In this document: in pieces, positions 5,706-64,000 of the stretch
How positions within the stretch are numbered: position 1 is the stretch's first letter
How the letters are laid out: every line of letters starts with the position of its first letter
IMG/VR virus record: IMGVR_UViG_3300042398_001452
Length of the DNA: 64,000 nucleotides
Source: a virus
Taxonomy: Duplodnaviria; Heunggongvirae; Uroviricota; Caudoviricetes
Strand: one strand, 5' to 3'
Translations under genes and position numbers: made by a program
The notes under the pieces: model-generated
The model's database searches: none
Told to the model about the DNA's origin: nothing
The model's input: the letters and a program-made list of their open reading frames with translations, nothing else

Positions 5706-5724
5706 ATCAATTAAACAAAAGCAA

Positions 5725-6597
5725 ATGACAAATTTAAAGCACCACGTTTTCCAACAGTCAGTTACAGGACGTAACGAAGTAGTAGACGCTTACCTAAGCG
5801 AAATCAACAAAATCTCTCCGATCACTGCGGAAGAGGAAAAAACATTATGCAGTCGAATTATCAATGGTGGAGACGAAAGAGCTCGTCAAAGATTTGTCGA
5901 GGGTAACTTAAAAATCGTTGTATCAATCGCAAAGCAGTATCAAGGTACGGGTCTAGAATTAATGGACTTGATAAACGAAGGTAATGTCGGTTTGGTTAAG
6001 GCGTCACAGTTCTACGACCCTAGTGTTAAAGAAAAATACACCGACAGTGGTAAAACTGTTCGTTTTGTATCCTTCGCAGTTTGGTGGGTTCGTCAGGCAA
6101 TCTTAGAGGCGGTAAAAGAAAAAGGTCGTATAGTTAAAGTACCACAAAATCAACTAAACGCTCAAAGAAAGATCGCTAAGGAAATGGACCAAATCATGAA
6201 GACCGAAGGATACACCTCAGTCGAAATGGCAGCGGAATCTTTAGGTTTCGAACCGGACAAATACCAAACACAATCATCGGTTTCGCTAAGCACACCAATC
6301 GGAGAAGAAGACTTCACCCTAGGCGATACAATGTCTGACGGAACAGTTTCAGATGCGGGATTAGAAAAACTAAGTTTCATTAAACAAATCTCCGCAGTAC
6401 TAAGCACCTTAGACGAAAGAGAAAACTTCGTTATCTCCAACTGGTTCGGTATCAACGGTCAATCTATAAAAAGAAAAGATGAGATCGCAAAAGAACTCGG
6501 AGTATCTCAAGAACGTATAGAACAAATCTACCACAAAGGAATTCGAAAACTTAAAGCTTCGAGCCGATCACGATTATTAAAGCCTTTCGTTTCATAG
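5725..6597 (+). CDS. sigma-70 family RNA polymerase sigma factor (phage-encoded), 290 aa
   Basis: Region 2 signature (LINEGNVGLVKA...FVSFAVWWVRQAI) and region 4.2 HTH (KDEIAKELGVSQERIEQIYHKGIRKLK). EPM upstream. Confidence 0.8.
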   Translation: MTNLKHHVFQQSVTGRNEVVDAYLSEINKISPITAEEEKTLCSRIINGGDERARQRFVEGNLKIVVSIAKQYQGTGLELMDLINEGNVGLVKASQFYDPSVKEKYTDSGKTVRFVSFAVWWVRQAILEAVKEKGRIVKVPQNQLNAQRKIAKEMDQIMKTEGYTSVEMAAESLGFEPDKYQTQSSVSLSTPIGEEDFTLGDTMSDGTVSDAGLEKLSFIKQISAVLSTLDERENFVISNWFGINGQSIKRKDEIAKELGVSQERIEQIYHKGIRKLKASSRSRLLKPFVS

Positions 6598-6620
6598 GTT
6601 TGATTGATTAACAAAAAAGA

Positions 6621-6646
6621 GAGGAGACTTCGGTCTCCTTTTTTTG
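6621..6646 (+). terminator. rho-independent terminator
   Basis: GAGGAGAC-TTCG-GTCTCC plus T7. Confidence 0.75.
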
Positions 6647-6674
6647 TGTGATATTATTCACTGAATGATAAATT

Positions 6675-6689
6675 CTGAGGTTCCCCAGG
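6675..6689. repeat. PAL copy
   Basis: CTGAGGTTCCCCAGG. Confidence 0.55.
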
Positions 6690-6764
6690 AGATTTAGTCA
6701 GGTTTAAAAAAGAAGAAAATGAAAGATTGTATTTATTATATCCCCACGAGATTAATAAGATCTA

Positions 6765-6800
6765 GGGGTCCCCACCCGGAGGCCGCGCACGCGTAGGAGG
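6765..6800. repeat. GCH copy 2
   Basis: GGGGTCCCCACCCGGAGGCCGCGCACGCGTAGGAGG, 5' of EPM 6819. Confidence 0.55.
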
Positions 6801-6818
6801 TTTTTAGAAAAAACCAGG

Positions 6819-6858
6819 AATCATTTTTTTAATTAAATAAGATTACTTATATTAGCTA
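6819..6858 (+). promoter_or_regulatory. EPM copy
   Basis: Upstream of the 6860 ORF. Confidence 0.55.
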
Positions 6859-6859
6859 T

Positions 6860-7183
6860 ATGGAAACAATCGATAGAAAGGTATTTGAATCCCATGATCT
6901 ATTTGCAGAGATCATGAAGAAGGAATCACACCACGATCATGAGATTGTTGACGAAGGACATGGTTCAAGATGGAAGGAAGATCCAGATGTAGTTAAGCTT
7001 GTTGATGACATGGGAGGTTTAAATAACATTGTAAGACTATTCTTCTCACTTGGTATCACAAAGAATTCTGAAGAATGGAGGAAACTCTACAGAGATATAG
7101 GTTATTCACTCTATGGATATTGGGAGATATTCTATTGGGATATGAATAACGAAGATGCTGCTGATTATCGTTCAGATTGTTAG
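6860..7183 (+). CDS. hypothetical protein (107 aa)
   Basis: Track ORF with EPM upstream and terminator downstream. Confidence 0.55.
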   Translation: METIDRKVFESHDLFAEIMKKESHHDHEIVDEGHGSRWKEDPDVVKLVDDMGGLNNIVRLFFSLGITKNSEEWRKLYRDIGYSLYGYWEIFYWDMNNEDAADYRSDC

Positions 7184-7204
7184 TGGTTTGATTGATTAAC
7201 AAGA

Positions 7205-7231
7205 AAAGGTCGGATTCGCATCCGGCCTTTT
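7205..7231 (+). terminator. rho-independent terminator
   Basis: GGTCGGAT-TCGC-ATCCGGCC plus TTTT. Confidence 0.6.
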
Positions 7232-7271
7232 CCGTGCTCGAAAGTTTCTGGATGTTAGCTGTGGAGATGCA

Positions 7272-7286
7272 CTGGGGAACCGCAGG
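7272..7286. repeat. PAL copy
   Basis: CTGGGGAACCGCAGG. Confidence 0.55.
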
Positions 7287-7309
7287 AACTTTAGGATGTA
7301 CCAATTAAA

Positions 7310-7350
7310 AATCATTTTTTTTATCAATGTTTTATTACTATCTTTGCATC
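7310..7350 (+). promoter_or_regulatory. EPM copy (degenerate 3' half)
   Basis: AATCATTTTTTTTATCAATGTTTTATTACTATCTTTGCATC before ATG 7351. Confidence 0.4.
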
Positions 7351-7902
7351 ATGGGATACACAACAGAATTTGAAGGTCGATTTGACCTGGATAGAGAATT
7401 AAGCGAGGAGATGTTTAATTTTCTAAAATCATTCAACGAGACAAGGAGAATGAAAAGAAAGATTAGTGACGAATTTGGTGTGGAGGGTGAATTTTTCGTA
7501 AAAGGAGGTAGCTATTTTGGTCAAGGTCGTGAGGATAATATAATTGAGTATAATGAACCTCCGAGTACACAACCCGGGCTATGGTGTCAATGGACACCTA
7601 CGGAAGACCGAAAAGGAATTGAATGGGATGGGGGAGAGAAATTTTATGACTATACCGAATGGCTAGTATATCTTGTTAATAAGATACTTGCCCCGAATGG
7701 ATATGTCTTAAACGGAGCCGTTCAATGGGAGGGTGAAGAAAGAGGTGACAGAGGAAAAATTATAGTCGAGAACAATAAAGTCTATACTAAGAAGGGAAGG
7801 TTAAAAGACGAGATAACCCCAGAAAATGCTAGGAAGTACATAGCAGGTGAAGGATGGAAATACGATTTTATGATGGCCGAGACTGTTTTAAAATTGTCTT
7901 AA
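7351..7902 (+). CDS. hypothetical protein (about 183 aa; the track ORF 7327..7902 probably starts at the internal ATG 7351)
   Basis: A degenerate EPM copy ends just before 7351. Terminator at 7921. Confidence 0.55.
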   Translation: MGYTTEFEGRFDLDRELSEEMFNFLKSFNETRRMKRKISDEFGVEGEFFVKGGSYFGQGREDNIIEYNEPPSTQPGLWCQWTPTEDRKGIEWDGGEKFYDYTEWLVYLVNKILAPNGYVLNGAVQWEGEERGDRGKIIVENNKVYTKKGRLKDEITPENARKYIAGEGWKYDFMMAETVLKLS

Positions 7903-7920
7903 TCTATAGTACGATTCTTA

Positions 7921-7946
7921 AAGGCCGATGTAGTTCGGCCTTTTTT
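7921..7946 (+). terminator. rho-independent terminator
   Basis: AGGCCGA-TGTAG-TTCGGCCT plus T6. Confidence 0.7.
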
Positions 7947-7990
7947 GTGTGCCGTAAATTATTTTTAGAAAATTCTACCTTTTTCTCAGA

Positions 7991-8032
7991 AATCATTTTT
8001 TTATTAGTAGAAAAATCCATATATTTGCTATG
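7991..8032 (+). promoter_or_regulatory. EPM copy
   Basis: Upstream of the 8054 ORF. Confidence 0.6.
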
Positions 8033-8053
8033 TAACCAATTAAAAACAACCCC

Positions 8054-8359
8054 ATGAAAAACCAAATGACAGCAGAACAGAAGGCGAAAAAAGCAGCAGC
8101 TAACAAAGCTTACCGTGAGCGTAAAAAAATGAAAGCTCAAAACTGGATGGAGCTCGACAAGTTCGAAATGAGCTTTGAACATAAAATTCGCCTTTTCAAA
8201 AACCTTAAACTGGAAATCACAAACTCCTACTGTGCGAGTCCAGGTACGGTCTTAAAGTTTGAAAGAATATCGAACGAAGACAACTTGATAGTTTTCCGAG
8301 TACGCCGCACCGGACGAAGAACTTTCTTCACCACCTCTGAAGAACTAACCGTTAGTTAG
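8054..8359 (+). CDS. member A of a 4-copy paralogous family of basic about 100-aa proteins (KAKKAAANKAYRERKK...RVRRTGRRTFFTT)
   Basis: Paralogs at 11083, 14929 and 16281 share NWMELDKFEMSFEHKIRLFKNLKLE and RVRRTGRRTFFTT. EPM upstream. Confidence 0.7.
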   Translation: MKNQMTAEQKAKKAAANKAYRERKKMKAQNWMELDKFEMSFEHKIRLFKNLKLEITNSYCASPGTVLKFERISNEDNLIVFRVRRTGRRTFFTTSEELTVS

Positions 8360-8378
8360 TTCTTTGGAAACCCCGCGA

Positions 8379-8400
8379 AGGAGCTTAGGCTCCTTTTTTT
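8379..8400 (+). terminator. rho-independent terminator
   Basis: GGAGC-TTAG-GCTCC plus T7. Confidence 0.7.
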
Positions 8401-8431
8401 GTGAACCAAGGTTTTATGGATGTTGTATTTT

Positions 8432-8446
8432 CTGGGGAACCCCAGG
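8432..8446. repeat. PAL copy
   Basis: CTGGGGAACCCCAGG. Confidence 0.65.
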
Positions 8447-8460
8447 AATCTGGATACCAA

Positions 8461-8502
8461 AATCATTTTTTTATCTCGCTGGAAAATACTATATTTACTA
8501 TA
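8461..8502 (+). promoter_or_regulatory. EPM copy
   Basis: Upstream of the small ORF at 8503. Confidence 0.55.
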
Positions 8503-8609
8503 TGAAAAACAGGGAGTTAAACAAACAAATACTAATTAAGCTAGCACCATATCTTTTCATTGCTACTATATTAGGTGTATCATTTTTATTACTACATTAT
8601 CTTGGCTAA
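8503..8609 (+). CDS. possible 35-aa membrane peptide
   Basis: EPM copy at 8461 ends right before this ATG. The sequence is hydrophobic. Confidence 0.35.
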
Positions 8610-8649
8610 AACAAAAGTAAGATTCAATCTAAGCAGGGGTAAGAACTAC

Positions 8650-8976
8650 ATGAAGTGGAAGATTGCATACCCCGACGGTTCTATCGAATACATAGATCCA
8701 AATAAAAGCGATTTAACGCTTAAAAAATGCAGACTCAAGAATAATCCTAAAGCCGCTAATAAAATCCTGCTAGGAGCAAATAAAACGGTGTGTGCATGGA
8801 TTCTTTGTGACGATGTTATAATCGTTGAAAGAAATCATAAAGATATAGAAGAAGTGCAAAGACTCCGGTACAACCCCCGGGTAGCTGCAAACTGGAACTT
8901 TAGAGATGTCAATGTTGACGGTAAAGATTTCCATCTCATAGAAAGCCGAGGTAGCAAGCTGTATATTATTTACTAG
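8650..8976 (+). CDS. hypothetical protein (about 108 aa, start chosen at MKWK)
   Basis: Track ORF 8575..8976. Internal ATG at 8650 was chosen to avoid overlap with the small upstream ORF. Confidence 0.5.
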   Translation: MKWKIAYPDGSIEYIDPNKSDLTLKKCRLKNNPKAANKILLGANKTVCAWILCDDVIIVERNHKDIEEVQRLRYNPRVAANWNFRDVNVDGKDFHLIESRGSKLYIIY

Positions 8977-9020
8977 AATCATTTTTTTCTTTTCATAGAT
9001 TTTTCTACATTTGTTGTGTA
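8977..9020 (+). promoter_or_regulatory. EPM copy
   Basis: Upstream of the 9030 ORF. Confidence 0.55.
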
Positions 9021-9029
9021 AACAAAAGA

Positions 9030-9500
9030 ATGCCATCGTTATATTATCTTTCAAATGCACCATCAAATCTAAGAGACCTTGTAGCGTATTTGCCTGAGGA
9101 CTCTCGCATTTATTTAGTTGGCCACGGGCAAATGAATGCTTCAAAACTTTTGACTGCCTTTAAGAAATCATTAAAATTAAAAGGCGTATATTTAGGCTGT
9201 GTAGGCACCGGAAATTACCCGGGTGTTCAAGCAGCCAAAACATCATTGCCCCCTGGAGTTTACTATGGACCAATTAAATTTGATACGTATAATACTAAAG
9301 AACACCGGCATCTTAAAATGGTCCCCGCTTTTCTTGATTCTTATCTAGAGAGTATTAAATTAAAAGATCCCACTAGATATTCTTCTGCAATCTACGCTTT
9401 AAAAGAATCGGGTATTTCCCCTGATATTATAAGAAAGCATGAAGAAGAAAATAGACATATAATACGTTCAGGATCAATCCTTAGCAGATTCAGATTCTAA
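9030..9500 (+). CDS. hypothetical protein (156 aa) carrying the shared C-terminal module ...SAIYALKESGISPDIIRKHEE..RSGSILSRFRF
   Basis: C-terminal about 40 aa align with C-termini of 25482..26555, 29417..29989 and 31305..32828. EPM upstream. Confidence 0.65.
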   Translation: MPSLYYLSNAPSNLRDLVAYLPEDSRIYLVGHGQMNASKLLTAFKKSLKLKGVYLGCVGTGNYPGVQAAKTSLPPGVYYGPIKFDTYNTKEHRHLKMVPAFLDSYLESIKLKDPTRYSSAIYALKESGISPDIIRKHEEENRHIIRSGSILSRFRF

Positions 9501-23445: not shown

Positions 23446-23866
23446 GGGCCCGCTTTGGATTTGACAGGCGGAGGTAGTTCTTTGAAATGATGCAGGCAGG
23501 GTTAGATTGGAAATCCTTAATCACCTATCGAACAATAAACGCAAACGTTTACAACACCGAGGATATCATGAGTATCCCAACTTCTCTTACTCGCGTAGCG
23601 GTAGCAGAGGAGGCTGAGTTGCTAATGGCAGCTTAACCGGCGGGCCGCACCGGCCTAGGAACAGAAAGGTGATGGTGGAGTCTGGTCTTACCTTAAAGAC
23701 CGAAACGGAAATTCGGCTCATACCGAAGAGTACACAGACTGAGCATTAAGTTTGTAATAAAAGAAATGCAAAAAAGTTTGTCCGTGTCGAACAACGGACT
23801 AAGCCTGTGAATGAGTTTCCTGAGCATTCGATCTGGACGAGGGTTCGACTCCCTCCGGGTCCACCA
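23446..23866 (+). ncRNA. ssrA: tmRNA (transfer-messenger RNA), about 421 nt, with encoded CCA
   Basis: 5' end GGGCCCGCUUUGGAUUUGACAGG resembles the canonical tmRNA 5' end GGGGCUGAUUCUGGAUUCGACGGG. The 3' end has T-arm GAGGGUUCGACUCCCUC and acceptor CGGGUCC-ACCA pairing with the 5' GGGCCCG. An internal reading frame ends with TAA at 23634-23636 (..AEEAELLMAA) followed by a GC hairpin, as in tmRNA tag regions. A terminator follows the CCA. Confidence 0.75.
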
Positions 23867-41415: not shown

Positions 41416-42279
41416 ATGAGGCAACTTAAAATTACAACATCGATTACAAATAGATCTGATAGATCCCTAGAGAAATATCTTCAAGATATTTCAAAGGAGG
41501 AAATGATTACCGCAGACGAAGAGACAAGATTGACTAGATTAATTAGAGAGGGTGATACACGGGCTCTAGATAAGATGGTTAAAGCAAATCTAAGATTCGT
41601 TGTTTCTGTAGCTAAACAATATCAACACCAAGGACTTACTCTTACAGATCTTATTAACGAGGGTAATCTTGGTCTGATAAAAGCTGCAAAGAAGTTCGAC
41701 GAAACAAGGGGGTTCAAATTTATATCATATGCTGTTTGGTGGATCAGACAAGCTATATTAGAAGCTCTTTCCGATAAAGCAAGAGTTATTCGTATACCAC
41801 TCAATCAAGTAGGTGTTCTTGGAAAAATAAACAAGGCTTATTCTAAATTAGAACAAGATCTTGGGAGAGCTCCTACAACAGAAGAGATATCAGAAGAAAT
41901 TGACATTGCAGATCATAAGATAAAAGAAACCTTAATGACCTCAAGAAATCATGTTTCTTATGATGCTCCTATGGGTGGTGACGATGAAAATTCATCGATG
42001 ATAGATCTATTGACCAATAAGGATTTCCCGTCAACAGATTCAGTTGTAATTGAAGAGTCACTAAGAATTGATATAGAAAGAACATTAGACACTTTAGATC
42101 CTAAATGCCGTGAGATTATAAAATTAAATTATGGTATAGGATATACACACCCAAGGTCTCTTGATGAAATAGGTGAAAAATATTCATTGACTAGAGAAAG
42201 GGTTAGACAAATAAAAGAAAAAGGATTAAAAAAATTAAGAGCACAAGCTCGTACTAAGATATTAAAACAATATCTATAG
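41416..42279 (+). CDS. sigma-70 family sigma factor (RpoD/RpoS-like, with regions 1.2, 2, 3 and 4), 287 aa
   Basis: YLQDISKEEMITADEE (region 1.2), LINEGNLGLIKAAKKFD..FISYAVWWIRQAI (region 2), EIGEKYSLTRERVRQIKEKGLKKLR (region 4.2). Confidence 0.85.
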   Translation: MRQLKITTSITNRSDRSLEKYLQDISKEEMITADEETRLTRLIREGDTRALDKMVKANLRFVVSVAKQYQHQGLTLTDLINEGNLGLIKAAKKFDETRGFKFISYAVWWIRQAILEALSDKARVIRIPLNQVGVLGKINKAYSKLEQDLGRAPTTEEISEEIDIADHKIKETLMTSRNHVSYDAPMGGDDENSSMIDLLTNKDFPSTDSVVIEESLRIDIERTLDTLDPKCREIIKLNYGIGYTHPRSLDEIGEKYSLTRERVRQIKEKGLKKLRAQARTKILKQYL

Positions 42280-50026: not shown

Positions 50027-51007
50027 ATGGTAAAGAAAAAAGGACCCATATGTATGTTTATAGAGAGAAACTATAAACACTTTAATGCAGCTGCCTTAAA
50101 AGATGCAGCTATAGGATACGAAAAACATATAGATAGCGGAGGAAAGATGCTCGTGTCTCTAGCAGGTGCAATGAGTACAGCAGAGCTTGGTATTTCACTT
50201 GCTGAAATGATAAGAGAAGGAAAAATTGATATAATATCTTGTACAGGAGCAAACTTAGAGGAGGATTTAATGAACCTAGTAGCTCACTCTCACTACAAGA
50301 GAATACCTAACTACCGCGATTTAACTCCTCAGCAAGAAAGGGATCTTTTAGATAAGGGACTGAATAGAGTTACAGATACATGTATACCCGAGGAAGAAGC
50401 TTTTAGAAGACTACAGACCCACATATATGATATTTGGAAAGAAGCTGAAGATAAAGGAGAAAGATATTTTCCGCATGAATACATGTACAAATTAATCAAT
50501 AGTGGAATACTAGCTCAATATTATGAGATAGATCCTAAGGATTCTTGGATGATTGAAGCAGCTAAAAGAAATCTACCGATGGTTGTTCCTGGATGGGAGG
50601 ATTCAACAATGGGAAATATATTTGCTTCTTATGTTATTAAAGGTGAACTAAAAGCTGAAACAGTTAAAAGTGGTATAGAGTATATGGTAGATCTTAGCCA
50701 TTGGTACAGAAATAATTGTTCACCGATGGGTGTCGGTTTCTTTCAAATAGGAGGGGGAATTGCTGGGGATTTTCCTATATGTGTTGTTCCTATGATGTAT
50801 CAGGATCTTGAATGGGAGGATGTTCCTTTCTGGTCTTATTTCTGTCAGATCTCTGATTCGACTACATCATACGGTTCTTATTCAGGAGCAGTACCAAACG
50901 AGAAGATTACATGGGGAAAATTGGATGCAGATACACCAAAATTTGTTATTGAGTCCGATGCAACAATAGTTGCTCCTCTAATGTTCGCTTGGATATTAAA
51001 TAAGTGA
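50027..51007 (+). CDS. deoxyhypusine synthase-like / homospermidine synthase-like NAD-dependent aminobutyl transferase, 326 aa
   Basis: KIDIISCTGANLEEDL (cf. DHS V-D-V-L-V-T-T-A-G-G-V-E-E-D-L), FFQIGGGIAGD, and C-terminal GAVPNEKITWGKLDADTPKFVIESDATIVAPLMFAWIL (cf. DHS [35 protein letters not shown]). Confidence 0.75.
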   Translation: MVKKKGPICMFIERNYKHFNAAALKDAAIGYEKHIDSGGKMLVSLAGAMSTAELGISLAEMIREGKIDIISCTGANLEEDLMNLVAHSHYKRIPNYRDLTPQQERDLLDKGLNRVTDTCIPEEEAFRRLQTHIYDIWKEAEDKGERYFPHEYMYKLINSGILAQYYEIDPKDSWMIEAAKRNLPMVVPGWEDSTMGNIFASYVIKGELKAETVKSGIEYMVDLSHWYRNNCSPMGVGFFQIGGGIAGDFPICVVPMMYQDLEWEDVPFWSYFCQISDSTTSYGSYSGAVPNEKITWGKLDADTPKFVIESDATIVAPLMFAWILNK

Positions 51008-55737: not shown

Positions 55738-56142
55738 ATGATAATGGGGATTGATTTTGACGGAACTTGTGTATCTCACGAATTTCCACTGGTAGGAAAC
55801 GATATAGGAGCGGTTTCTGTTCTTAAAGATATTGTAGAAAGTGGAAATAGTCTTATTTTATGGACAATGAGATCTGATAATAATAAAGGTCTTTTCTTAG
55901 CTGCCGCTGTAAAATGGTTTTCTGATAATGATATACCACTATGGGGAATACAAAGAAATCCCTTACAAGATAGTTGGACTAGTTCTCCTAAAGCTTATTG
56001 TGAGATGTATATAGATGACGCAGCTTTAGGATGTCCACTAAAAACAGATTTAGTAATATCTTCTAGACCTTTTGTAGATTGGGAAGAAGTTAGAAAAATC
56101 CTAACAAATCAGGGGGTTATTAAAATAAAGGGAGCTCAATGA
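55738..56142 (+). CDS. HAD-superfamily hydrolase-like (nucleotidase-like) protein, 134 aa
   Basis: N-terminal GIDFDGTCV is a DxDGT motif I. Confidence 0.45.
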   Translation: MIMGIDFDGTCVSHEFPLVGNDIGAVSVLKDIVESGNSLILWTMRSDNNKGLFLAAAVKWFSDNDIPLWGIQRNPLQDSWTSSPKAYCEMYIDDAALGCPLKTDLVISSRPFVDWEEVRKILTNQGVIKIKGAQ

Positions 56143-56654
56143 TCAAGTATTATGCTGGTATAGGTTCTAGAGAAACTCCTCCCGGTATAGAACCAATGAT
56201 AGAGGAGATATCCAAGATTCTTAATAAGTTCGGATATGTTCTTAGATCAGGAGGGGCAGATGGATCTGACTATATGTTTGAAAAATATTTTGATGGCGAA
56301 AAAGAAATATATCTTCCTTGGAAAGGATTTAACAAAAATGATTCAGATTTATATCTAGATAATATAGATCTGGATTTAATAGAAAAATCTAAAGAAATAG
56401 CTAAAAAATTCCATCCATCATGGAATTTTTTATCTGATGGGGGTAGAAAGCTTATGATTCGAAACACTTTTCAAATTCTAGGTAAAGATTTAGAGACTCC
56501 TTCTTCTTTCGTTGTCTGTTGGACCCCAGGAGGTAAAATAACAGGAGGGACTGGGCAGGCTTTAAGAATAGCTAAGAGTTTATCTATACCAATATTTAAT
56601 CTCTACGATAAAGATTGCTTACATAAAATAAAATTACACATAACAAATAATTAA
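56139..56654 (+). CDS. DprA/SLOG-superfamily Rossmann-like protein, 171 aa
   Basis: YAGIGSRETPP...GYVLRSGGADGSDYMFEK resembles the GSR...SGGA.G.D core of DprA/Smf-like proteins. Confidence 0.5.
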   Translation: MIKYYAGIGSRETPPGIEPMIEEISKILNKFGYVLRSGGADGSDYMFEKYFDGEKEIYLPWKGFNKNDSDLYLDNIDLDLIEKSKEIAKKFHPSWNFLSDGGRKLMIRNTFQILGKDLETPSSFVVCWTPGGKITGGTGQALRIAKSLSIPIFNLYDKDCLHKIKLHITNN

Positions 56655-56658
56655 AAAA

Positions 56659-57231
56659 ATGGCAGAAACAGTTAATTTACCCAATCCAAAAGACCGGAAT
56701 CTTTTCTTCAATAGACAAGTAAACCAAAGCTCGGTAAATGATCTTTGTAAGAATCTAGTAGATATTTCAGAGCATGACCAGTATATCAAAAAGATATATG
56801 AAGCACATGATCTTATATACGTACCAAAGCCTATTAAAATATATGTAGATTCTTATGGTGGATACGTATATCAATGTCTAGGTCTTATAGGGATAATGGA
56901 AACATGTAAAACCGAGATTCATACAATTGTAACTGGATGTGCTATATCTTGCGGATTTTTAATAGCCATATCAGGACACAAAAGATTCGGATATGATAGA
57001 TCAACTTATTTATATCATCAGGTAGCAGGAGGAGCTTTTGGAAAGGTTAAGGATATAGAAGAGGAACTTTTAGAGATCTTAAGATTACAAGAAACTACAG
57101 AGGATATAACCCTAAGAAAAACTTCAATAAGTAAAAAAATGCTAGAGAAAGTTTATAAAGGCAAAAAAGACTGGTATATGGATAGTAGAGAGGCATTAAA
57201 ATTAGGTGTAATAGACGAAATAATAAAATAA
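56659..57231 (+). CDS. ClpP-family serine protease, 190 aa
   Basis: IYVDSYGGYVYQCLGLIGIME...IVTGCAISCGFLIAISG...YLYHQVAGGAFG follows the ClpP pattern (nSpGG....aIyD.m......T...G.AaSmg..ll..G.....p.s.imiHQp.gg). Confidence 0.75.
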   Translation: MAETVNLPNPKDRNLFFNRQVNQSSVNDLCKNLVDISEHDQYIKKIYEAHDLIYVPKPIKIYVDSYGGYVYQCLGLIGIMETCKTEIHTIVTGCAISCGFLIAISGHKRFGYDRSTYLYHQVAGGAFGKVKDIEEELLEILRLQETTEDITLRKTSISKKMLEKVYKGKKDWYMDSREALKLGVIDEIIK

Positions 57232-58658
57232 TGTCCGAGGATAAAATTATATCTAAGTCTATAGTAGATCTTTCAACTCTAAACGAGGATCAGAGAAAAT
57301 CATTTGATTTAATGAAAGATTTCATTTATGACAGGAATGATGACGATATTTATGTTTTAAAGGGATGGGCAGGTACTGGTAAAACATATTGTGTAAGCAT
57401 ACTTGTTAGATATGTTCTTGATGTAATATATCCAGACAAAAATTGGTACAAAATAGCTGTTACTGGTCCAACGAATAAATCGGTTAGGGTTATTAAAAAA
57501 AGTACAGGTATAAAAAATCCTAGGGTTGTTTTTCAGACTATACATAAAATGTTAGGTCTAACAGAGAGAATAACACAGGACGGGCAACAGGAATTTGTTA
57601 ATCAGGGTGATTTTGTTCCACCTATTGAGAAAACAAAATTGCTTATAATAGATGAGGTTTCTATGCTCAATGATGATCTATTCCACGAGATATTGAGATA
57701 TAGGGATAAGGTTAAAATTATATGTATGGGAGATCCTGCTCAGATCCCACCAGTCGGTAAGCCTGATTGCATACCATTCAGAGATGAATTTTCTGAAATG
57801 TATGGTATAAAAACAATAGAGCTTAAAACTATAATGAGACAGAAGGGAGATAATCCAATTATAAGCACTTCTGTTACTATAAGAAATGATCTAGAAAATC
57901 CTTACGTTGATACAGGAAATGATTCTAGATTAAATGATAGAGGCGAAGGGATAGAAATAATAAATCTAAATTCCAGCGACAAAAGAGTTACCTTCTCTGA
58001 TATATTATCCAGCTATTTTAAAACTGAAGAATTTAAAGAAGATTCAGAATATTCTAAGATTATAGCTTGGAGAAATAAAACGGTTGAAACTATGAATAAT
58101 CTTGTTAGAAAGGTTATTTATGGAGAGGAGAATATAGGATCTAAAATATTGATAGGAGAGAAGCTTATAGCTAATAATCCAATAATGGATATGAATCAAA
58201 TACTTTTTAATACTAACGACGAATTCAGTGTTGAGGAGTTTGAGATAAAAAAAGAAAAGGTTAGAGTTGGAGATGATGAGGGTATACTAAAATATTATGA
58301 AGCAAGGGTCAGTTACTTAAATGATGACGACAAAAAGATTTATTATTATATAGATATACTACACGAGGATAGCGAATCCTATTTTAATGTTCTAGCAGGG
58401 AAACTTAAAAAAATAGCTATAGAGAAAAGAGGAAAAGAAAAATCCTGGATAAAGTACTACGAATTTATTAGAAGATTTGCAGATGTTAGTTATGCTTATG
58501 CAATAACAGCTCATAAATCTCAAGGGAGTACATATAATACAGCTTTTGTTCTCGAAGACGATATAGATGTTAATACTAATATAGTTGAGAGAAATAGAAT
58601 AAAATACACAGCATACACAAGATCAAGTAAAAAATTATATGTACTTAAACGATTTTAA
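57231..58658 (+). CDS. Dda/RecD-like superfamily-1 DNA helicase, 475 aa
   Basis: Walker A GWAGTGKT, Walker B LLIIDEVSM, GDPAQIPPV, and C-terminal AITAHKSQGST motif. Confidence 0.85.
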   Translation: MSEDKIISKSIVDLSTLNEDQRKSFDLMKDFIYDRNDDDIYVLKGWAGTGKTYCVSILVRYVLDVIYPDKNWYKIAVTGPTNKSVRVIKKSTGIKNPRVVFQTIHKMLGLTERITQDGQQEFVNQGDFVPPIEKTKLLIIDEVSMLNDDLFHEILRYRDKVKIICMGDPAQIPPVGKPDCIPFRDEFSEMYGIKTIELKTIMRQKGDNPIISTSVTIRNDLENPYVDTGNDSRLNDRGEGIEIINLNSSDKRVTFSDILSSYFKTEEFKEDSEYSKIIAWRNKTVETMNNLVRKVIYGEENIGSKILIGEKLIANNPIMDMNQILFNTNDEFSVEEFEIKKEKVRVGDDEGILKYYEARVSYLNDDDKKIYYYIDILHEDSESYFNVLAGKLKKIAIEKRGKEKSWIKYYEFIRRFADVSYAYAITAHKSQGSTYNTAFVLEDDIDVNTNIVERNRIKYTAYTRSSKKLYVLKRF

Positions 58659-59013
58659 TCTAAGACACCTATTAGCAATATTTTTTGCTATTGGTATAGC
58701 ACACGAGGCTAATATTTTATTAGGATTATCATTTCCTATTTTGTCCCTAATTTATACAGTTGGGCTACTATTAATAATATTTAATTTTACACAGCTAAAA
58801 AACTATGTTTGGCCTCCTGGATTAGGTATAATTGGTATTTTTTCACTGATCTATTTTATATTTCTTTTAATTGGATATGGTGAGAAATTTTTTAGAGATC
58901 TTTCTTCCGTCATATCCATATTGGTTTGGTTTAAATGTATATCATATCTAACAGATAATAATAGCGAGGAGGATCAAGATGACGGGTGGGAAATAAACGA
59001 AGAAAATGAATAA
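58639..59013 (+). CDS. hypothetical membrane protein (124 aa)
   Basis: Track ORF with three hydrophobic segments and an acidic tail. Confidence 0.5.
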   Translation: MYLNDFNLRHLLAIFFAIGIAHEANILLGLSFPILSLIYTVGLLLIIFNFTQLKNYVWPPGLGIIGIFSLIYFIFLLIGYGEKFFRDLSSVISILVWFKCISYLTDNNSEEDQDDGWEINEENE

Positions 59014-59446
59014 AAAAATGAAGACATCAGAAAAGTATAGACATATAGGATATTCATACCCAGGGGTACCAAATCCATGGAAACCTATAGTTGAAAAAGC
59101 AATAGTAGAGATAGAAAAAGAAATGTGGCCTAGATGGATACCTCTTTTTATAAAAAGATTGATACATTACTTAGCAACTGGAAATAGTGTGGTTAGAGTT
59201 AGAAGTTGGTTCTGGTATAGAATAAGAACAAAATTAACCAAAGGACAAATTATAACCGATATTAAAGATAAGTTTGCTACTCTAAGAATTTATGGGCATT
59301 TTGGAGAGGAGATAGAAAAAATAATAGAGCAAGCTGAAGACGAATGTTACAAAACATGTGAAAGGTGTGGTGGTAAAGAAAAAGTTAGAAGCGTCGGTAA
59401 AGGATGGATATACAATCTATGCAAAACGTGTAGAAAACCAAAATAA
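59006..59446 (+). CDS. hypothetical protein with C-terminal zinc ribbon (146 aa)
   Basis: CERCGG...CKTCRK. Confidence 0.55.
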   Translation: MNKKMKTSEKYRHIGYSYPGVPNPWKPIVEKAIVEIEKEMWPRWIPLFIKRLIHYLATGNSVVRVRSWFWYRIRTKLTKGQIITDIKDKFATLRIYGHFGEEIEKIIEQAEDECYKTCERCGGKEKVRSVGKGWIYNLCKTCRKPK

Positions 59447-59485
59447 TCATTTTTTATATCAATAAAAAATTCCTATCTTTATAAT
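59445..59485 (+). promoter_or_regulatory. EPM variant
   Basis: AATCATTTTTTATATCAATAAAAAATTCCTATCTTTATAAT abutting ATG 59486. Confidence 0.45.
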
Positions 59486-60304
59486 ATGAAAGTACTAACA
59501 TTAGGAGATGTACATGGTCGTGATAGGTGGATGTTTCATACACACGGAAGCCCTTACGAGTTCAATCACTGGATGACATTGGTTGAGAATGGAGTACCTG
59601 CGGACGAAGCCGAATTTTGGAAAGAAATGCCTTATATGCAATACGATAAGATTGTATTCGTTGGCGATTATGTTGATAGCTTCGATATTAGCAATGCCGT
59701 TATATTAGACAATCTTAAAAAAATACTTTTCTTTAAAAAAGCATTACCTGATAAGGTTGTACTTTTACTTGGAAATCATGATATTCAATATTTCGTTCCT
59801 AACGAAGTATGTAGCGGATATAGAGCAGAAATGAAACCAGATCTTTATCAGTTATTTACGGAGAATAAAGAATGTTTTAAAGTGGCTCACTTAGAGAAGG
59901 ATAATACGGGGGTTAAGTATTTATGGACACATGCAGGTGTTACCAATGGATGGCTAAAAGATGTTTGTAAAGATATTAATAATCCAAGATATAGACATTA
60001 CGAAATAGCTAAGGATTTTGATCCAAATGACCTAGATAAATTTATAAACGATCTATTTGAGCTTCGGGTTGACAATATATTTAACGTTGATGCTCACAGT
60101 GGTGGATATAACTTATGGGCAGGACCATTTTGGATTAGACCCACAATATTAAATGATTATCCTCTAGAAGGTGTTAATCAAATAGTAGGACACACACCAC
60201 AAAAAACGGTTAAAGATATCATCTGTGGAAAAGTTACTCATTATTTAGTAGATTGCCTTTTCGATGACTGTGACGAAGTTCTAGTTTTAGATATAGAAAA
60301 ATGA
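59486..60304 (+). CDS. calcineurin-like metallophosphoesterase (Ser/Thr phosphatase-like), 272 aa
   Basis: GDVHG, GDYVD and GNHD motifs in canonical order. EPM-like motif upstream. Confidence 0.8.
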   Translation: MKVLTLGDVHGRDRWMFHTHGSPYEFNHWMTLVENGVPADEAEFWKEMPYMQYDKIVFVGDYVDSFDISNAVILDNLKKILFFKKALPDKVVLLLGNHDIQYFVPNEVCSGYRAEMKPDLYQLFTENKECFKVAHLEKDNTGVKYLWTHAGVTNGWLKDVCKDINNPRYRHYEIAKDFDPNDLDKFINDLFELRVDNIFNVDAHSGGYNLWAGPFWIRPTILNDYPLEGVNQIVGHTPQKTVKDIICGKVTHYLVDCLFDDCDEVLVLDIEK

Positions 60305-60624
60305 CAAGAAAATTTAAATTTTATAAGGAAGATGATAATAGATGGTTTGTAGATCTACCTGAATGGGAAGGTGAAAAAGACGATCTTGAAATGGTTCTAG
60401 GAGCAGATACTCTTTTAGAGATATTATCCGGAGAATCTGACTATTGCTTTGTCACTTTTTCTGATGAACCATTTGAAGATTCTAAGATACTTTCTTATGA
60501 TCATAATGAATCTACACAAGGATATTATAACAATGACGCATGGCACGGACCATCTACAATCTGGCTCTGTTACGTTACAGAATTTGTATTTGGTAAATAT
60601 CCAGAAAAGATCTACTATAAATAG
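60301..60624 (+). CDS. hypothetical protein (107 aa)
   Basis: Track ORF with ATGA overlap. Confidence 0.55.
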   Translation: MTRKFKFYKEDDNRWFVDLPEWEGEKDDLEMVLGADTLLEILSGESDYCFVTFSDEPFEDSKILSYDHNESTQGYYNNDAWHGPSTIWLCYVTEFVFGKYPEKIYYK

Positions 60625-60679
60625 ATAATTCCATATCAATTTTTCATCACAGGGGGATATATAAAAGAAAATATTCTCA

Positions 60680-62305
60680 GTGAAATATAGTTTAAGAATA
60701 AAAATCACACTAGCCATTGCTTCTATCCTAATGATTTGTTATATGTGTGTTAAAATTGCGGTTCTTGCTGAATTACGAGAATCTACAGAAACTACTAGAT
60801 GGATAGAATTTTTTGGCGTTATTTCGTTAATTCCTATATCAATCCTGTTAATCAAAGACTTTATTAATTCTACTAAAGATTCAGTATCTAAAGATTCTGT
60901 GAATAAGATGATTGAACTTGAGAATTTTTTAGATTCATCTGCTATTATTTCTAAAGCTGATAAAAACGGAAAGATAACTTATGTGAATAATAAATTTACG
61001 GAAGTCTCTGGTTATTCATTAGAAGATGTAATTGGTAAAGATCATAATATCGTAAACAGTGGAACACATCCGAAAGAATTCTGGACAGACATGTATCGTA
61101 CTGTTGTTAAAGAAAGAAAGATCTGGAACTCTGTATGTACTAATCGCACAAAAGATGGTTCTTTATACTATGTAGATACATTCATTAAATGTGAGTTTGA
61201 CGAAAAAGGCAATCTTCAGGGGTTTATGTCAATACGTCAAGACGTAACAGAGATAAAAAGAAAAGAGATAGAGATATCTAATAGAATGAATGCTATTAAC
61301 AGATCAAATGCTGTTATTGAATTTGATTTAGAGGGCAATATAAGATTTGCAAACGATTCATTTCTAAATGTATTAGGATATTCGCAGGAAGAAATCGTAG
61401 GGAAGCATCATAGTATATTTATTGAAGATGATGTAAAAGCGACTGATGAATATCATAATTTTTGGAAAACTTTAGGTAAAGGCGAATTCTTCAGTGGTGA
61501 AATCACAAGAAAGAAAAAAGACGGTACGTTAATTTATCTACAAGCAACATATAACCCTATCATAGGACCCGATGGAAAACCATATCGAGTAATGAAAATT
61601 GCTACTGATATTACTGAAAGTTATAATCAACAGAAAGAGATAGAAAAGAAAAATACATATCTTGAGCATGCTGCTAAAATACTTAGACACGATATGCACA
61701 GTGGAATTAACACATATATGCCTAGAGGTCTAAGCTCTTTAGATAGAAGATTATCAGAAGAACAAATAAAGGAACTTAAAATTGAAGCTCCTATTAAAAT
61801 GATTAAGGAAGGCCTTCGACACACACAAAAAGTTTATAAAGGGGTTTATGAGTTTACAAATCTTGTAAAGAAAGACGTAGTTCTCAATAGAGAAAAATGT
61901 AATCTAAAAAATATTCTTGAAGACTACTTATCAGCAACTGCATATAGACCGCAGGTTGATTTAGGAGATTTGGGAGAATTAAGCGTTAATGAGGCTCTTT
62001 TTTGTACTGCATTAGATAATTTAATAAGAAACGGATTAAAATACAATGACAGTAATAATAAGATAGTAAAAATATACAGAATAGATGATATATTATATGT
62101 AGAAGATAACGGTAGAGGATTAAGCTCTGAGGAGTTTAAATTACTTTCCCAACCATATACTCGTAAGGAAGGGCAGAAAGAATCTGGTACTGGATTAGGA
62201 TTAAATATATGTATAGCAATATTAGAGGAACACGGATTTAGTGTCTCATGTGATAGACTTCCTGAAATTGGAAGCCAAATAAAAATAAATTTAAAAAATG
62301 ATTGA
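60680..62305 (+). CDS. sensor histidine kinase with N-terminal TM anchor, two PAS domains, HisKA and HATPase_c, 541 aa
   Basis: Two PAS-like segments (GKITYVNNKFTEVSGYSLEDVIGKDHNIV...; GNIRFANDSFLNVLGYSQEEIVGKHHSIF...), H-box LRHDMHSGIN, and ATPase motifs LIRNGLKYN / VEDNGRGL / GTGLGLNI. Confidence 0.8.
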   Translation: MKYSLRIKITLAIASILMICYMCVKIAVLAELRESTETTRWIEFFGVISLIPISILLIKDFINSTKDSVSKDSVNKMIELENFLDSSAIISKADKNGKITYVNNKFTEVSGYSLEDVIGKDHNIVNSGTHPKEFWTDMYRTVVKERKIWNSVCTNRTKDGSLYYVDTFIKCEFDEKGNLQGFMSIRQDVTEIKRKEIEISNRMNAINRSNAVIEFDLEGNIRFANDSFLNVLGYSQEEIVGKHHSIFIEDDVKATDEYHNFWKTLGKGEFFSGEITRKKKDGTLIYLQATYNPIIGPDGKPYRVMKIATDITESYNQQKEIEKKNTYLEHAAKILRHDMHSGINTYMPRGLSSLDRRLSEEQIKELKIEAPIKMIKEGLRHTQKVYKGVYEFTNLVKKDVVLNREKCNLKNILEDYLSATAYRPQVDLGDLGELSVNEALFCTALDNLIRNGLKYNDSNNKIVKIYRIDDILYVEDNGRGLSSEEFKLLSQPYTRKEGQKESGTGLGLNICIAILEEHGFSVSCDRLPEIGSQIKINLKND

Positions 62306-62729
62306 TTCGATTTTATTAGTGGATGATGAGAGTTTATTTCATCTTGTATTTGAAGACGCTTGTAGTCTTTTAGATATCTCGCTTTCTTTAGAAAGTCTTG
62401 ATAGCTCAGACCAAGCTGCTAAACTTTTTGAGGGGTTTCAAAAAGATCCTGACGGTAAGCCAGAGTGTGTATTCGTAGATCTAAATATAATTGGTTCTTC
62501 TTATGATGGTATTGAATTAATACGTAAGATCAATTTTGAATATGGTAATAATGTTGTAATCGGTATAATATCCTCATCTAATGAACCAGAAGAACAAGCT
62601 AAAGCGGTTAAAGCTGGTGCTCAATTTTGGATTATAAAATCTGATGATATCGAGCCAAGATTGGAGGATTTTAAAAATGATTTTCCAGGATACAAAAATA
62701 GAACAAATCCTTTTAAGATCTATAAATAA
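62298..62729 (+). CDS. stand-alone response-regulator receiver (REC) domain protein, 143 aa
   Basis: LLVDDE, phospho-acceptor context VFVDLNI, and conserved K in AVKAGA. Overlaps the kinase stop and is co-oriented. Confidence 0.65.
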   Translation: MIDSILLVDDESLFHLVFEDACSLLDISLSLESLDSSDQAAKLFEGFQKDPDGKPECVFVDLNIIGSSYDGIELIRKINFEYGNNVVIGIISSSNEPEEQAKAVKAGAQFWIIKSDDIEPRLEDFKNDFPGYKNRTNPFKIYK

Positions 62730-63301
62730 TGAAGATAGAAAAATCAGTTAGGGATTGCTTATTAGAAATTCAAAAAACGAAGAGAATAAGCTTAGAGGGT
62801 AATATACTGAAGATAATTGAGGCTGATGAGGAGGATACTGAATTTAAAAATTATCTCACTAGCTCCATAGAAAAAGATAAAGAAGGTAGAAGGAAAAGAC
62901 TTGAGATAACTAAGCAAGTACAGGAAAGAAATAAAGAATTGCAAGCTTCAGAAGAGGAAAATATAAGAATAAACGAAGAACTAAAGATTGCATTAGAGGA
63001 AGCTGAAATCGCTAAAAATGAAGCACTAGAAGCAAAAGATATTGCATTGAATGATTTAGATGTAATACAAAAAAAATCTCAAACTGAACTTATAGGAACT
63101 ATAGTAAAGGTTGCTCTTCTTGTTATTATCAGTGTTGGTGTTATCACTACTATTATGTATGCAATTGCAATGATGACAGGGAAAGATACTCAGATAATAG
63201 GATCTACGTGGAGTAATATGTTCGGGATACTCCTAACCAACGCATTCTCTATAGTTGGTACTATCATGGGGGTTAAATACGCTAGCGAAAAAAAGGAATG
63301 A
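62729..63301 (+). CDS. coiled-coil protein with C-terminal transmembrane anchor (190 aa)
   Basis: Track ORF with Glu/Lys-rich heptads, then IGTIVKVALLVIISVGVITTIMYAIAMM. Confidence 0.55.
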   Translation: MKIEKSVRDCLLEIQKTKRISLEGNILKIIEADEEDTEFKNYLTSSIEKDKEGRRKRLEITKQVQERNKELQASEEENIRINEELKIALEEAEIAKNEALEAKDIALNDLDVIQKKSQTELIGTIVKVALLVIISVGVITTIMYAIAMMTGKDTQIIGSTWSNMFGILLTNAFSIVGTIMGVKYASEKKE

Positions 63302-63369
63302 CAAAAAAAGAGAGCCAGGATGGTTGCGATTCTCCTGACTCTCGATGATACTTGCGTAACATCACGGTC

Positions 63370-63855
63370 CTAAGCCGTGTAAGATCTTAATTTTCTTTGT
63401 TTCTGTATTCTATTATATCTTAATAATTCATGTAAATGAAACAAACAAAGAATAGTTATTGCAAATATTTCAGCATATAATATACTATGGAATAAAAATA
63501 ATATAGAAGCGGAATAAGGTACTATCGCCCAGTTTATTTTTTTGTTTAATAAAATTGGATAAAAATTAAACAAAAAGAAACCTATAGCAAATATATTATG
63601 TAGGTTTTCGTTGGTATTAAAAGAGAATGCAGTCAAAAGCAATAGCATTACTGCAGGAATTCTCCATCTATTTAGAGAGAATAGAAAATATGATGTTGAA
63701 GCATTTACTATTATAAACATTGGTTGCATAGATGTAATCCAATAAGAAGATATAGATGGAAGTTCTCCTATTGATCCTATGTATATAAAAGGAGCTATAG
63801 CTGCCATTAAAATTACAAGAAACCTTAGAATGAAATCTTTCCGATTATTGAACAT
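63370..63855 (-). CDS. polytopic membrane protein (161 aa)
   Basis: Track ORF on the minus strand with 4-5 hydrophobic helices. Confidence 0.55.
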   Translation of the reverse strand: MFNNRKDFILRFLVILMAAIAPFIYIGSIGELPSISSYWITSMQPMFIIVNASTSYFLFSLNRWRIPAVMLLLLTAFSFNTNENLHNIFAIGFFLFNFYPILLNKKINWAIVPYSASILFLFHSILYAEIFAITILCLFHLHELLRYNRIQKQRKLRSYTA

Positions 63856-63882
63856 ATAATATGTATTCGATATGGCTAGAAA

Positions 63883-64000
63883 AAAAATAGAAATCGTCGG
63901 GGAATATGAGGAAGATATTTCTACTTTAACGGGTAAAAGAAAAATTCTATTTAATAATATGAGAAAACTACACCCTAAAGGAAATGAAAAAGCACAAATG
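63883..64000 (+). CDS. 5' part of an ORF running off the window end (MARKKIEIVGEYEEDIS...)
   Basis: Open frame from ATG 63883 to the window edge. Confidence 0.3.

Follow-up and report, generated by a model that had tools for sequence, protein, structure and literature searches.

Lytic phages are generally held to time the lysis of their hosts by a holin "clock", with signal input known in only few cases, such as T4 and N4. Lysis inhibition has been described in both of these phages and in T4 involves the holin T and the antiholins RI and RIII (PMC6832632, PMC12642591). In Staphylococcus and Bacillus the two-component system LytSR controls the holin/antiholin-like proteins LrgAB/CidAB (e.g., PMC6993578). 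Here we report on a locus in a 64,000 nucleotide stretch of viral DNA (Caudoviricetes; IMG/VR record IMGVR_UViG_3300042398_001452), called the window throughout, where the gene of a sensor histidine kinase with two PAS domains is followed by that of a stand-alone receiver and by a third gene, G3, encoding a membrane protein. The reading which we favor, at a probability of about 0.5, is that the three genes form a self-contained phage signaling module in which the kinase would act through the receiver on G3 to adjust the timing of lysis.

Like LytSR, such a module would couple a two-component system to holin-like membrane proteins governing murein hydrolase access and lysis. LytSR is, however, a cellular system, with a LytS that crosses the membrane several times and a LytR that is a DNA-binding transcriptional regulator of the LytTR type, whereas in the phage system nothing binds DNA as an output, and a membrane protein would be the target, at the post-translational level. 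The likeness to lysis inhibition in T4 and N4 consists in a lysis time which is changed by a signal via accessory proteins acting on the holin, and in the location of the module in or beside the lysis cassette. T4, in contrast, senses superinfection by means of a periplasmic antiholin, without kinase, receiver or PAS domain, and has no homology to the module; the signal proposed here would be cytoplasmic redox or another ligand, with a periplasmic input in addition where a second kinase is present.

For the individual parts other comparisons are closer. The tandem PAS domains of the kinase align with PAS-A/PAS-B of MmoS from Methylococcus capsulatus (PDB 3ewk, 7e-28), and the His, Asn, Arg and Gly of the flavin pocket are kept in PAS1. 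MmoS, on the other hand, controls methane monooxygenase and is a hybrid kinase of large size that also contains GAF, receiver and Hpt domains, NifL no longer functions as a kinase and Aer transmits its signal by way of a chemoreceptor, whereas the phage kinase is short, membrane-tethered and equipped with a divergent dimerization and histidine phosphotransfer (DHp) region, its flavin binding being a prediction. The receiver resembles those of the DivK-DivL/CckA, LovK-LovR and CheY-FliM systems in combining a full phospho-switch set with the lack of an output domain, but there is no sequence kinship to the partners of those receivers and no chemotaxis gene lies nearby; its proposed partner is the new coiled-coil membrane protein G3, the interaction being argued from linkage and fusions only. 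Detocs (bioRxiv 10.1101/2023.01.24.525353) is likewise a three-gene operon, composed of the kinase DtcA, the stand-alone receiver DtcB and the effector DtcC, which is sometimes membrane-spanning, but Detocs is host-borne, its effector has a receiver domain of its own and DtcB is only a buffer, while G3 gives no Response_reg match.

A comparative survey of 224 jumbo phages reported only a divergent receiver, never linked to histidine kinases (PMC7824862), and a survey of huge phages makes no mention of two-component genes. In the literature on histidine kinases and two-component systems encoded by phages or viruses, and on lysis control by holins and PAS domains, we found no description of a system of this kind. 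Scattered kinase and regulator annotations in phages do exist (bioRxiv 10.64898/2026.05.02.722434), among them the PHROG families 857, 10912 and 731. Taken singly, the PAS kinase, the flavin PAS and the stand-alone receiver of the module are familiar; their assembly is not.

The sensor kinase and the stand-alone receiver

A preliminary description of the window, made from its letters, had recognized two overlapping open reading frames (ORFs) as a kinase with a membrane anchor, two PAS folds, an H-box and complete HATPase_c motifs, and as a CheY-like receiver without an output domain. Both ORFs exist at the positions given there. The kinase gene (60680..62305, on the plus strand like all features of the module) has a GTG start and encodes 541 aa, in which Pfam recognizes two PAS domains and a HATPase_c domain. 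Hydropathy places a two-helix membrane anchor at residues 4-33 and 39-63 (60689..60868), where the AlphaFold model has helices H3-29 and H37-68. The loop between the two helices is of about eight residues, which leaves no room for an extracytoplasmic sensor, so that the signal must be cytoplasmic or membrane-proximal. PAS1, of the flavin adenine dinucleotide (FAD) type, covers residues 90-189 (60947..61246) and is modeled at a confidence (pLDDT) of 85-88; PAS2 covers residues 212-313 (61313..61618) and was aligned to 3ewk. The Pfam E-values of the two PAS domains are 2e-23 to 3e-24.

The DHp helical hairpin follows at residues ~312-399 (61613..61876; AlphaFold helices H312-357 and H360-399) and contains the phosphoacceptor candidate His337 (61688..61690) within the motif YLEHAAKILRHDMHSGINTY; the H-box itself, KILRHDMHSG, is encoded by 61676..61705. 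When searched with phmmer against the PDB, the C-terminal half of the kinase aligned without gaps to HK853, with His337 on the phospho-His260 and the pair His337-Asp338 in register with His260-Glu. The ATP-binding HATPase_c domain occupies residues 441-539 (62000..62296; Pfam 1.5e-12, 48.4 bits against a cut-off of 26.4) and has its N, G1, F and G2 boxes at N451, D476/G478/G480, F486 and G503/G505/G507. These four boxes, together with His337 and Asp338, are invariant in 32 homologs. As judged by alignment, the kinase thus has the features of class I (HisKA-like) enzymes, namely an acceptor His with an acidic neighbor on a hairpin and the GHKL boxes, and its DHp is, by sequence, of a divergent type with the motif RHDMHSGINTY. 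Homologs of the kinase which are 93-72% identical are found on metagenomic and viral contigs, and the ratio of non-synonymous to synonymous substitution (dN/dS) is 0.11-0.16. The kinases of three related loci (L044, L045, and L028) align to that of the window only from residues ~167-202 onward. PAS2 is the sole PAS domain retained in the minimal kinases of the family, and it is the PAS2 type that is doubled in the one-component relatives (P0414).

The receiver gene (62298..62729; 143 aa) starts before the kinase gene has ended, the two sharing 8 nt, AAAAATGATTGA. The protein matches Response_reg (PF00072) with an E-value of 6e-9 and 36.5 bits, where 30.2 are required, with Asp61 (62478..62480) as acceptor, and D9, D10, D61, S92, W111, and K114 are invariant in 16 divergent homologs of 72-92% identity. 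No output domain is present, the only addition being a conserved tail of 25 residues, and the best PDB relative is 3ilh. The receiver is present in all 42 loci defined by the kinase, at 71-97% identity, and with a dN/dS of 0.02-0.05 it is the most conserved gene of the module. A role in chemotaxis, which the likeness to CheY might bring to mind, was dropped because no che or flagellar genes are found among the neighbors in 49 loci and the partner of the receiver is a PAS kinase and not CheA. With both the H-box His and the receiver Asp invariant, the kinase and receiver very likely constitute a functional phage-borne pair, as had been proposed.

What the kinase senses can be narrowed by comparison of PAS1 with known structures. 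In phmmer searches of the PDB its best matches were MmoS (3ewk, 7e-28), Aer (8dik, 5e-16) and NifL (2gj3, 4e-12; also 9qq6). The flavin pocket of Aer is formed by G28, H53, N85, and R115, residues described as common to MmoS (PMC9668731), and alignment to 8dik and 3ewk identifies their counterparts in PAS1 as G97, H122, N155, and R186, all of which are invariant in the family. PAS2 lacks the pocket Asn and Arg, like the cofactor-free PAS-B of MmoS. The pocket suggests redox or respiratory sensing, which is the best-supported guess and gives added weight to one of the several inputs (light, redox, small ligands) envisaged in the preliminary description.

G3 and its inheritance with the pair

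The pair had been described as two genes, and a third was overlooked. G3 (62729..63301; 190 aa) begins with an ATG that shares one base with the receiver stop codon (junction TAATG) and is composed of an N-terminal head, a coiled-coil stalk and a membrane hairpin. The small head and its conserved basic helix, LEGNILK...RRKRLxITKQVQxQN, extend over residues ~1-70. The two-helix hairpin, recognized by hydropathy at residues 118-185 (63080..63283), is the putative output element; it ends in a short charged C-terminus, and its second transmembrane (TM) helix, WSNMFGILLTNAFSIVGTIMGVKYA, is almost invariant in the alignment, the 67% GC contig L045 included. AlphaFold models G3 at a pLDDT of 82.7 as a continuous helix H37-150 followed by H155-185; the middle part of the long helix differs in length by ~35-42 residues among homologs. 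The family is compact, forming 262 clusters at 50% identity in a set of 1.84 billion representatives; at 90% identity, however, the matching clusters run to thousands, ~7,300 by a single-sequence search and at least 7,985 by a profile search, and none of the 90%-identity matches listed carries a meaningful annotation.

Kinase, receiver and G3 occur together in ~180 IMG/VR loci. G3 is present in 41 of the 42 loci defined by the kinase, always abutting the receiver or overlapping it by 1-4 nt and thus coupled to it in translation, and in the reverse test, where 72 further viral loci were found by the N-terminus of G3 alone, the receiver was present in 70 and the kinase core in 64. The trio is kept across contigs of 39-67% GC. 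With dN/dS at 0.02-0.16 and synonymous sites saturated, all three genes are under strong purifying selection. The comparison of the window with a close relative, L008 (9355..12470), shows a nucleotide identity of 98% up to base 60685, of 69-91% across exactly the three genes, and of 95-100% from base 63287 onward; in L008 a GAF domain (~710 nt) stands in place of the membrane-anchor segment 60686..60886 of the window. The module thus behaves as a recombination or diversification island. It is co-occurrence, the reverse test, selection and the shared divergence island that tie G3 to the circuit, and the unit is one of three genes and not two.

The same island bears on a different interpretation. 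Kinase and receiver could serve as a counter-defense decoy or phosphate sink, draining phosphoryl groups from a host phosphorelay, or injecting them into it, and thereby blunting a Detocs-like defense or a stress pathway. Arms-race loci often are divergence islands between near-identical phages, stand-alone receivers such as CheY2 and LovR can be sinks, and Detocs itself combines a kinase with a stand-alone "buffer" receiver. However, a mimic of many host regulators would not be expected to remain as constant as this receiver, the most conserved protein of the module on contigs of 30-67% GC, and a decoy needs neither elaborate sensor kinases of its own nor G3. None of the three proteins matches a PADLOC model, for which reason their identity as Detocs or another defense system was also dropped. 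We consider a decoy improbable, and the hijack of a host phosphorelay, as suggested in the preliminary description, less likely than a self-contained circuit.

Sensor fusions, lysis genes and the proposed output

Fused forms of the module give indications of what its parts may do. In P0414 two PAS2-type domains are joined straight to the stalk and hairpin of G3, and in P0374 a GAF domain takes their place. The PAS-PAS-hairpin form gave 253 matching stretches in IMG/VR, the best 80 of which (L201-L280) are full-length at 75-99% identity, and no kinase or receiver was found near the gene in any of these 80; the GAF-hairpin form is full-length on three IMG/VR contigs (L281-L283). In five 50%-identity clusters it is the head and stalk of G3 that are fused, to a canonical HisKA-HATPase kinase. 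This fusion type was absent from the IMG/VR scan via G3, and when metagenomes were scanned with the kinase half of these proteins, only HisKA kinases of a generic kind (25-36% identical) came up, none of them close to a G3 head or a receiver. One example is carried by L046, a metagenome-assembled genome (MAG) contig labeled Bacteroidetes, where a kinase having three PAS domains and the same DHp is followed by a receiver of 70% identity and then by a G3-head::kinase fusion (5709..9090); the presumed partner domain thus sits on a second kinase, in a logic like that of DivK-DivL. The other genes of L046 have no homologs in 3.2 Mb of viral loci, and this version of the module is probably cellular. 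Judged by eye, the neighbors in L046 look like a CreD-like protein and secreted proteins that bear a C-terminal sorting domain.

Because of these variants we read the hairpin as a likely output element that can be driven by cytoplasmic sensors, the head of G3 as a likely input element able to drive either a hairpin or a kinase, and the kinase-receiver pair of the three-gene form as a probable adaptor between sensor and G3. In a further set of sister phages a secreted protein of ~200 aa and a second kinase are inserted between kinase and receiver (L018, 11404..13418; L030, 11143..13184; also L025, L026, L033, and L043). In this second kinase a signal peptide, a periplasmic domain and one TM helix are combined with the RHDMHSGINTY DHp of the first, which means that several inputs would converge on one receiver.

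The circuit we propose would run as follows. PAS1 would bind FAD and monitor redox or respiration in the infected cell, and the kinase would autophosphorylate on His337 and hand the phosphoryl group to Asp61 of the receiver. Since the receiver has no output domain it would act by binding a partner, the candidate being the N-terminal head of G3, from which the signal would pass along the stalk to the membrane hairpin. The hairpin would belong to the lysis machinery, in the manner of a holin, an antiholin or the partner of a holin, and the circuit would advance or delay host lysis according to host physiology. Sister phages would feed the second, periplasm-facing kinase into the same receiver, and in other phages the route would be shorter, PAS-PAS or GAF sensors being fused to the hairpin directly. 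That G3 is the output of the kinase-receiver circuit we consider probable.

The link to lysis comes from the neighboring genes. When these were clustered across 49 loci, peptidoglycan hydrolases ranked next to the genes of the module itself as the most widely shared neighbors. Genes for a GH24 phage lysozyme (PF00959, 5e-42) stop 8-83 bp short of the kinase gene, and endolysin genes of the PG_binding_1/GH19 or PG_binding_1/phrog_33083 type start 5-30 bp past G3 or end ~10 bp before the kinase. On a contig with a kinase identical to that of the window, a PG_binding_1/GH19 endolysin gene lies ~1.07 kb past G3, beyond base 64000; a precomputed Pfam "Gp23" match downstream of the window was not relied on, since the protein on which it falls looks glycosyltransferase-like in L005. 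The one-component genes usually have a holin-like small ORF on one side and a GH19 endolysin gene on the other, as in L214 (holin-like small 2-TM ORF, sensor-hairpin gene at 6001..7110, GH19 endolysin, secreted nuclease-like ORF), and a hydrolase or holin-like small 2-TM ORF is found within 1.5 kb in 67 of the 80 one-component loci. It should be noted that the holin-like small ORF (cluster c13) has no Pfam or PHROG match and owes its label to its features. After dereplication into 77 clusters, a hydrolase gene lies within 1.5 kb of the module in 40, and hydrolase genes are 11.8-fold denser inside this distance than at 1.5-6 kb. This neighborhood points, by guilt by association, to the lysis machinery. 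The two-helix hairpin of G3 and the nearby hydrolase would fit a holin or antiholin, but its 190 aa, its long cytoplasmic stalk and, in the lineage of the window, the distance of ~1.07 kb to the endolysin fit less well.

Several of our results weigh against a role in lysis, or against parts of the circuit. The functional steps beyond the assignment of domains are inferred. G3 has no match in Pfam, PHROG or PADLOC, and neither Pfam nor PHROG gives it homology to a described holin or antiholin family, for which a cytoplasmic stalk of 120 residues would also be atypical. A Foldseek comparison of its model with viral structures (BFVD) found only an uncharacterized homolog, an all-helical model carrying little fold information for such a search. 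The hydrolase census covered four probe families in flanks of up to 6 kb on each side; no recognized hydrolase was present in the flanks of 31 of the 77 clusters, and in 6 more the nearest lay at 1.5-6 kb. Gene order in phages is partly inherited, and adjacency counts do not represent independent events. For the kinase, the FAD binding of PAS1 is predicted from residues only, and the DHp, modeled at a pLDDT of 32-50, is the least confident part of the model. The H-box named in the preliminary description is real by its alignment to HK853 and its invariance, but none of the Pfam DHp families (HisKA, HisKA_2, HisKA_3, HWE_HK and relatives) matches residues 311-541 at E <= 0.5, a scan which returned HATPase_c alone.

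The clusters without a recognized hydrolase are also what would be seen if the module were a genuine two-component system with an output other than lysis. The receiver would then bind a phage sigma factor, a host regulator or kinase, or a protease adaptor and reprogram transcription or metabolism, with G3 as a scaffold or as a linked gene of separate function. Stand-alone receivers commonly act on varied partners (CheY, DivK, CpdR, and LovR), sigma-70 genes are found 1-9 kb from the module in several phage lineages, and the probably cellular L046, with its G3 head on a second kinase, indicates that the head can feed outputs which are not in the membrane. Such an arrangement accounts poorly for the fact that G3 is co-translated and co-inherited with the kinase and receiver and exchanged with them as a unit, and for the fusion of the hairpin to sensors in viral loci devoid of kinase and receiver (the best 80 of 253), which means that it behaves as an output and not as a kinase scaffold; the enrichment of hydrolase genes beside the module is a further point against it. 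We therefore consider an output of this kind rather unlikely. That the output of the circuit concerns the timing of lysis is put forward tentatively, at a little under even odds.

Phage origin, neighboring genes and significance

The preliminary description had allowed for the region being host DNA, should the window extend past a prophage junction. No host junction was seen. GC is flat across the module region and its junctions, and in the comparison of composition which had been suggested as a check the three genes had codon-usage z-scores of 0.0-0.3 against the other 80 genes of the window, with GC of 0.31-0.33. The window holds genes for a Dda-type helicase (best match 30% identical), two sigma-70 factors, HNH/NUMOD4 homing endonucleases, a ClpP-like protease, polyamine synthesis and a transfer-messenger RNA (tmRNA); helicase, homing endonuclease and protease are upstream of the module and the endolysin is downstream. 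A capsid or terminase gene was found neither by PHROG nor by Pfam scans among the 81 ORFs of the window, and its viral identity is therefore argued from related loci. Kinase homologs of 50-93% identity lie on 42 IMG/VR contigs of up to 322 kb, and with later scans the viral loci came to more than 250, the longest contig reaching 430 kb. The flanks of 46 related loci (the 42 from IMG/VR and four MAG contigs) contain portal, virion-structural and tail-spike genes, T4-type topoisomerase II, RnlA, DNA ligase and many homing endonucleases.

What could speak for host DNA past a prophage junction, or for a bacterial contig mis-called as viral, is besides the unrecognized capsid and terminase the presence of homologous loci in genomes labeled bacterial. 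A receiver scan of 185,579 species-representative genomes found six contigs only, all in MAGs, and the phyla with which these are labeled number five and are unrelated, as would be expected of phage contigs that had been placed in wrong bins. L046, with its cellular-looking neighbors, has nothing else in common with the viral loci. Given the uniform composition of the window and the phage genes which flank the module in it and in its relatives, a non-phage origin is very improbable, and we conclude that the region is phage DNA.

Searches of 50,697 deposited phage genomes gave no match, either to 56000-64000 by megablast or to the receiver by tblastn, while for the kinase deposited phages offered no more than generic PAS proteins and, on P1-like records, Aer genes. 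There is consequently no cultured phage from which an annotation could be borrowed. The preliminary description had called phage-encoded sensor kinases rare; this holds in so far as the family is without members among deposited phages, but not for metagenomes, where it is very abundant. The family is unstudied rather than rare. A host among the Bacteroidota is no more than suggested, by L046, by the style of the signal peptides and by 3ilh, the best PDB relative of the receiver.

Other features of the window lie close to the module or recur near it. Convergent with G3 is a gene for a 161-aa multi-pass membrane protein (63370..63855, minus strand) which has no family match, is found only in the closest relatives L005 and L008, and lies between the module and genes for a lipoprotein and an endolysin. 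Between the two, at 63310..63343, a GC-rich inverted repeat (GAGAGCCAGGA...TCCTGACTCTC) follows a run of seven A; it is likely to be the terminator of the minus-strand gene and to mark the 3' end of the transcription unit of the module. Two genes upstream of the kinase a calcineurin-like metallophosphoesterase is encoded (59486..60304, +; motifs GDxHG, GDxxD, and GNHD), and genes of this type directly abut the module in L015 (9211..9897) and L018 (15941..16636); a phosphatase role in the circuit is conceivable. The tmRNA gene (23446..23866, +; Rfam RF00023, 92.7 bits, E 8e-35) has a GC of 0.48 in a region of ~0.33, and the tag predicted by ARAGORN is unusually long, at 31 aa (ANVYNTEDIMSIPTSLTRVAVAEEAELLMAA). 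The sister phages L007 and L025 have an SmpB gene (PF01668, 1e-44) placed immediately before that of their kinase. The two sigma-70 genes of the window are located at 5725..6597 and 41416..42279 (+; phrog_351, E 1e-52 and 3e-68), and the polyamine genes comprise a deoxyhypusine/homospermidine-synthase-like ORF (50027..51007, +; PF01916, 1.5e-41) and an ORF for S-adenosylmethionine decarboxylase (PF02675, 6e-27).

It is possible, and is advanced here with reserve, that the three-gene and one-component forms together represent an undescribed class of signal-gated phage lysis regulators, in which a hairpin of the lysis cassette would be placed under the control of fused PAS or GAF domains, or of a phosphorelay with a flavin sensor, to which a second, periplasmic kinase would add a further input in some phages. 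The proposal concerns a system that is directly testable, with three small genes, H337A and D61A as clear point mutants, and the one-component form as a natural control. G3 would represent a new membrane effector family with thousands of 90%-identity clusters in metagenomes, and a natural set of sensors that can be swapped for one another (membrane anchor, GAF, flavin PAS, and periplasmic domain) would feed one output. If the proposed circuit is correct, large environmental phages would actively read the physiology of their hosts before lysing them, and abundant uncultured giant phages would choose the time of burst by the redox or energy state of the host and by signals from its envelope.

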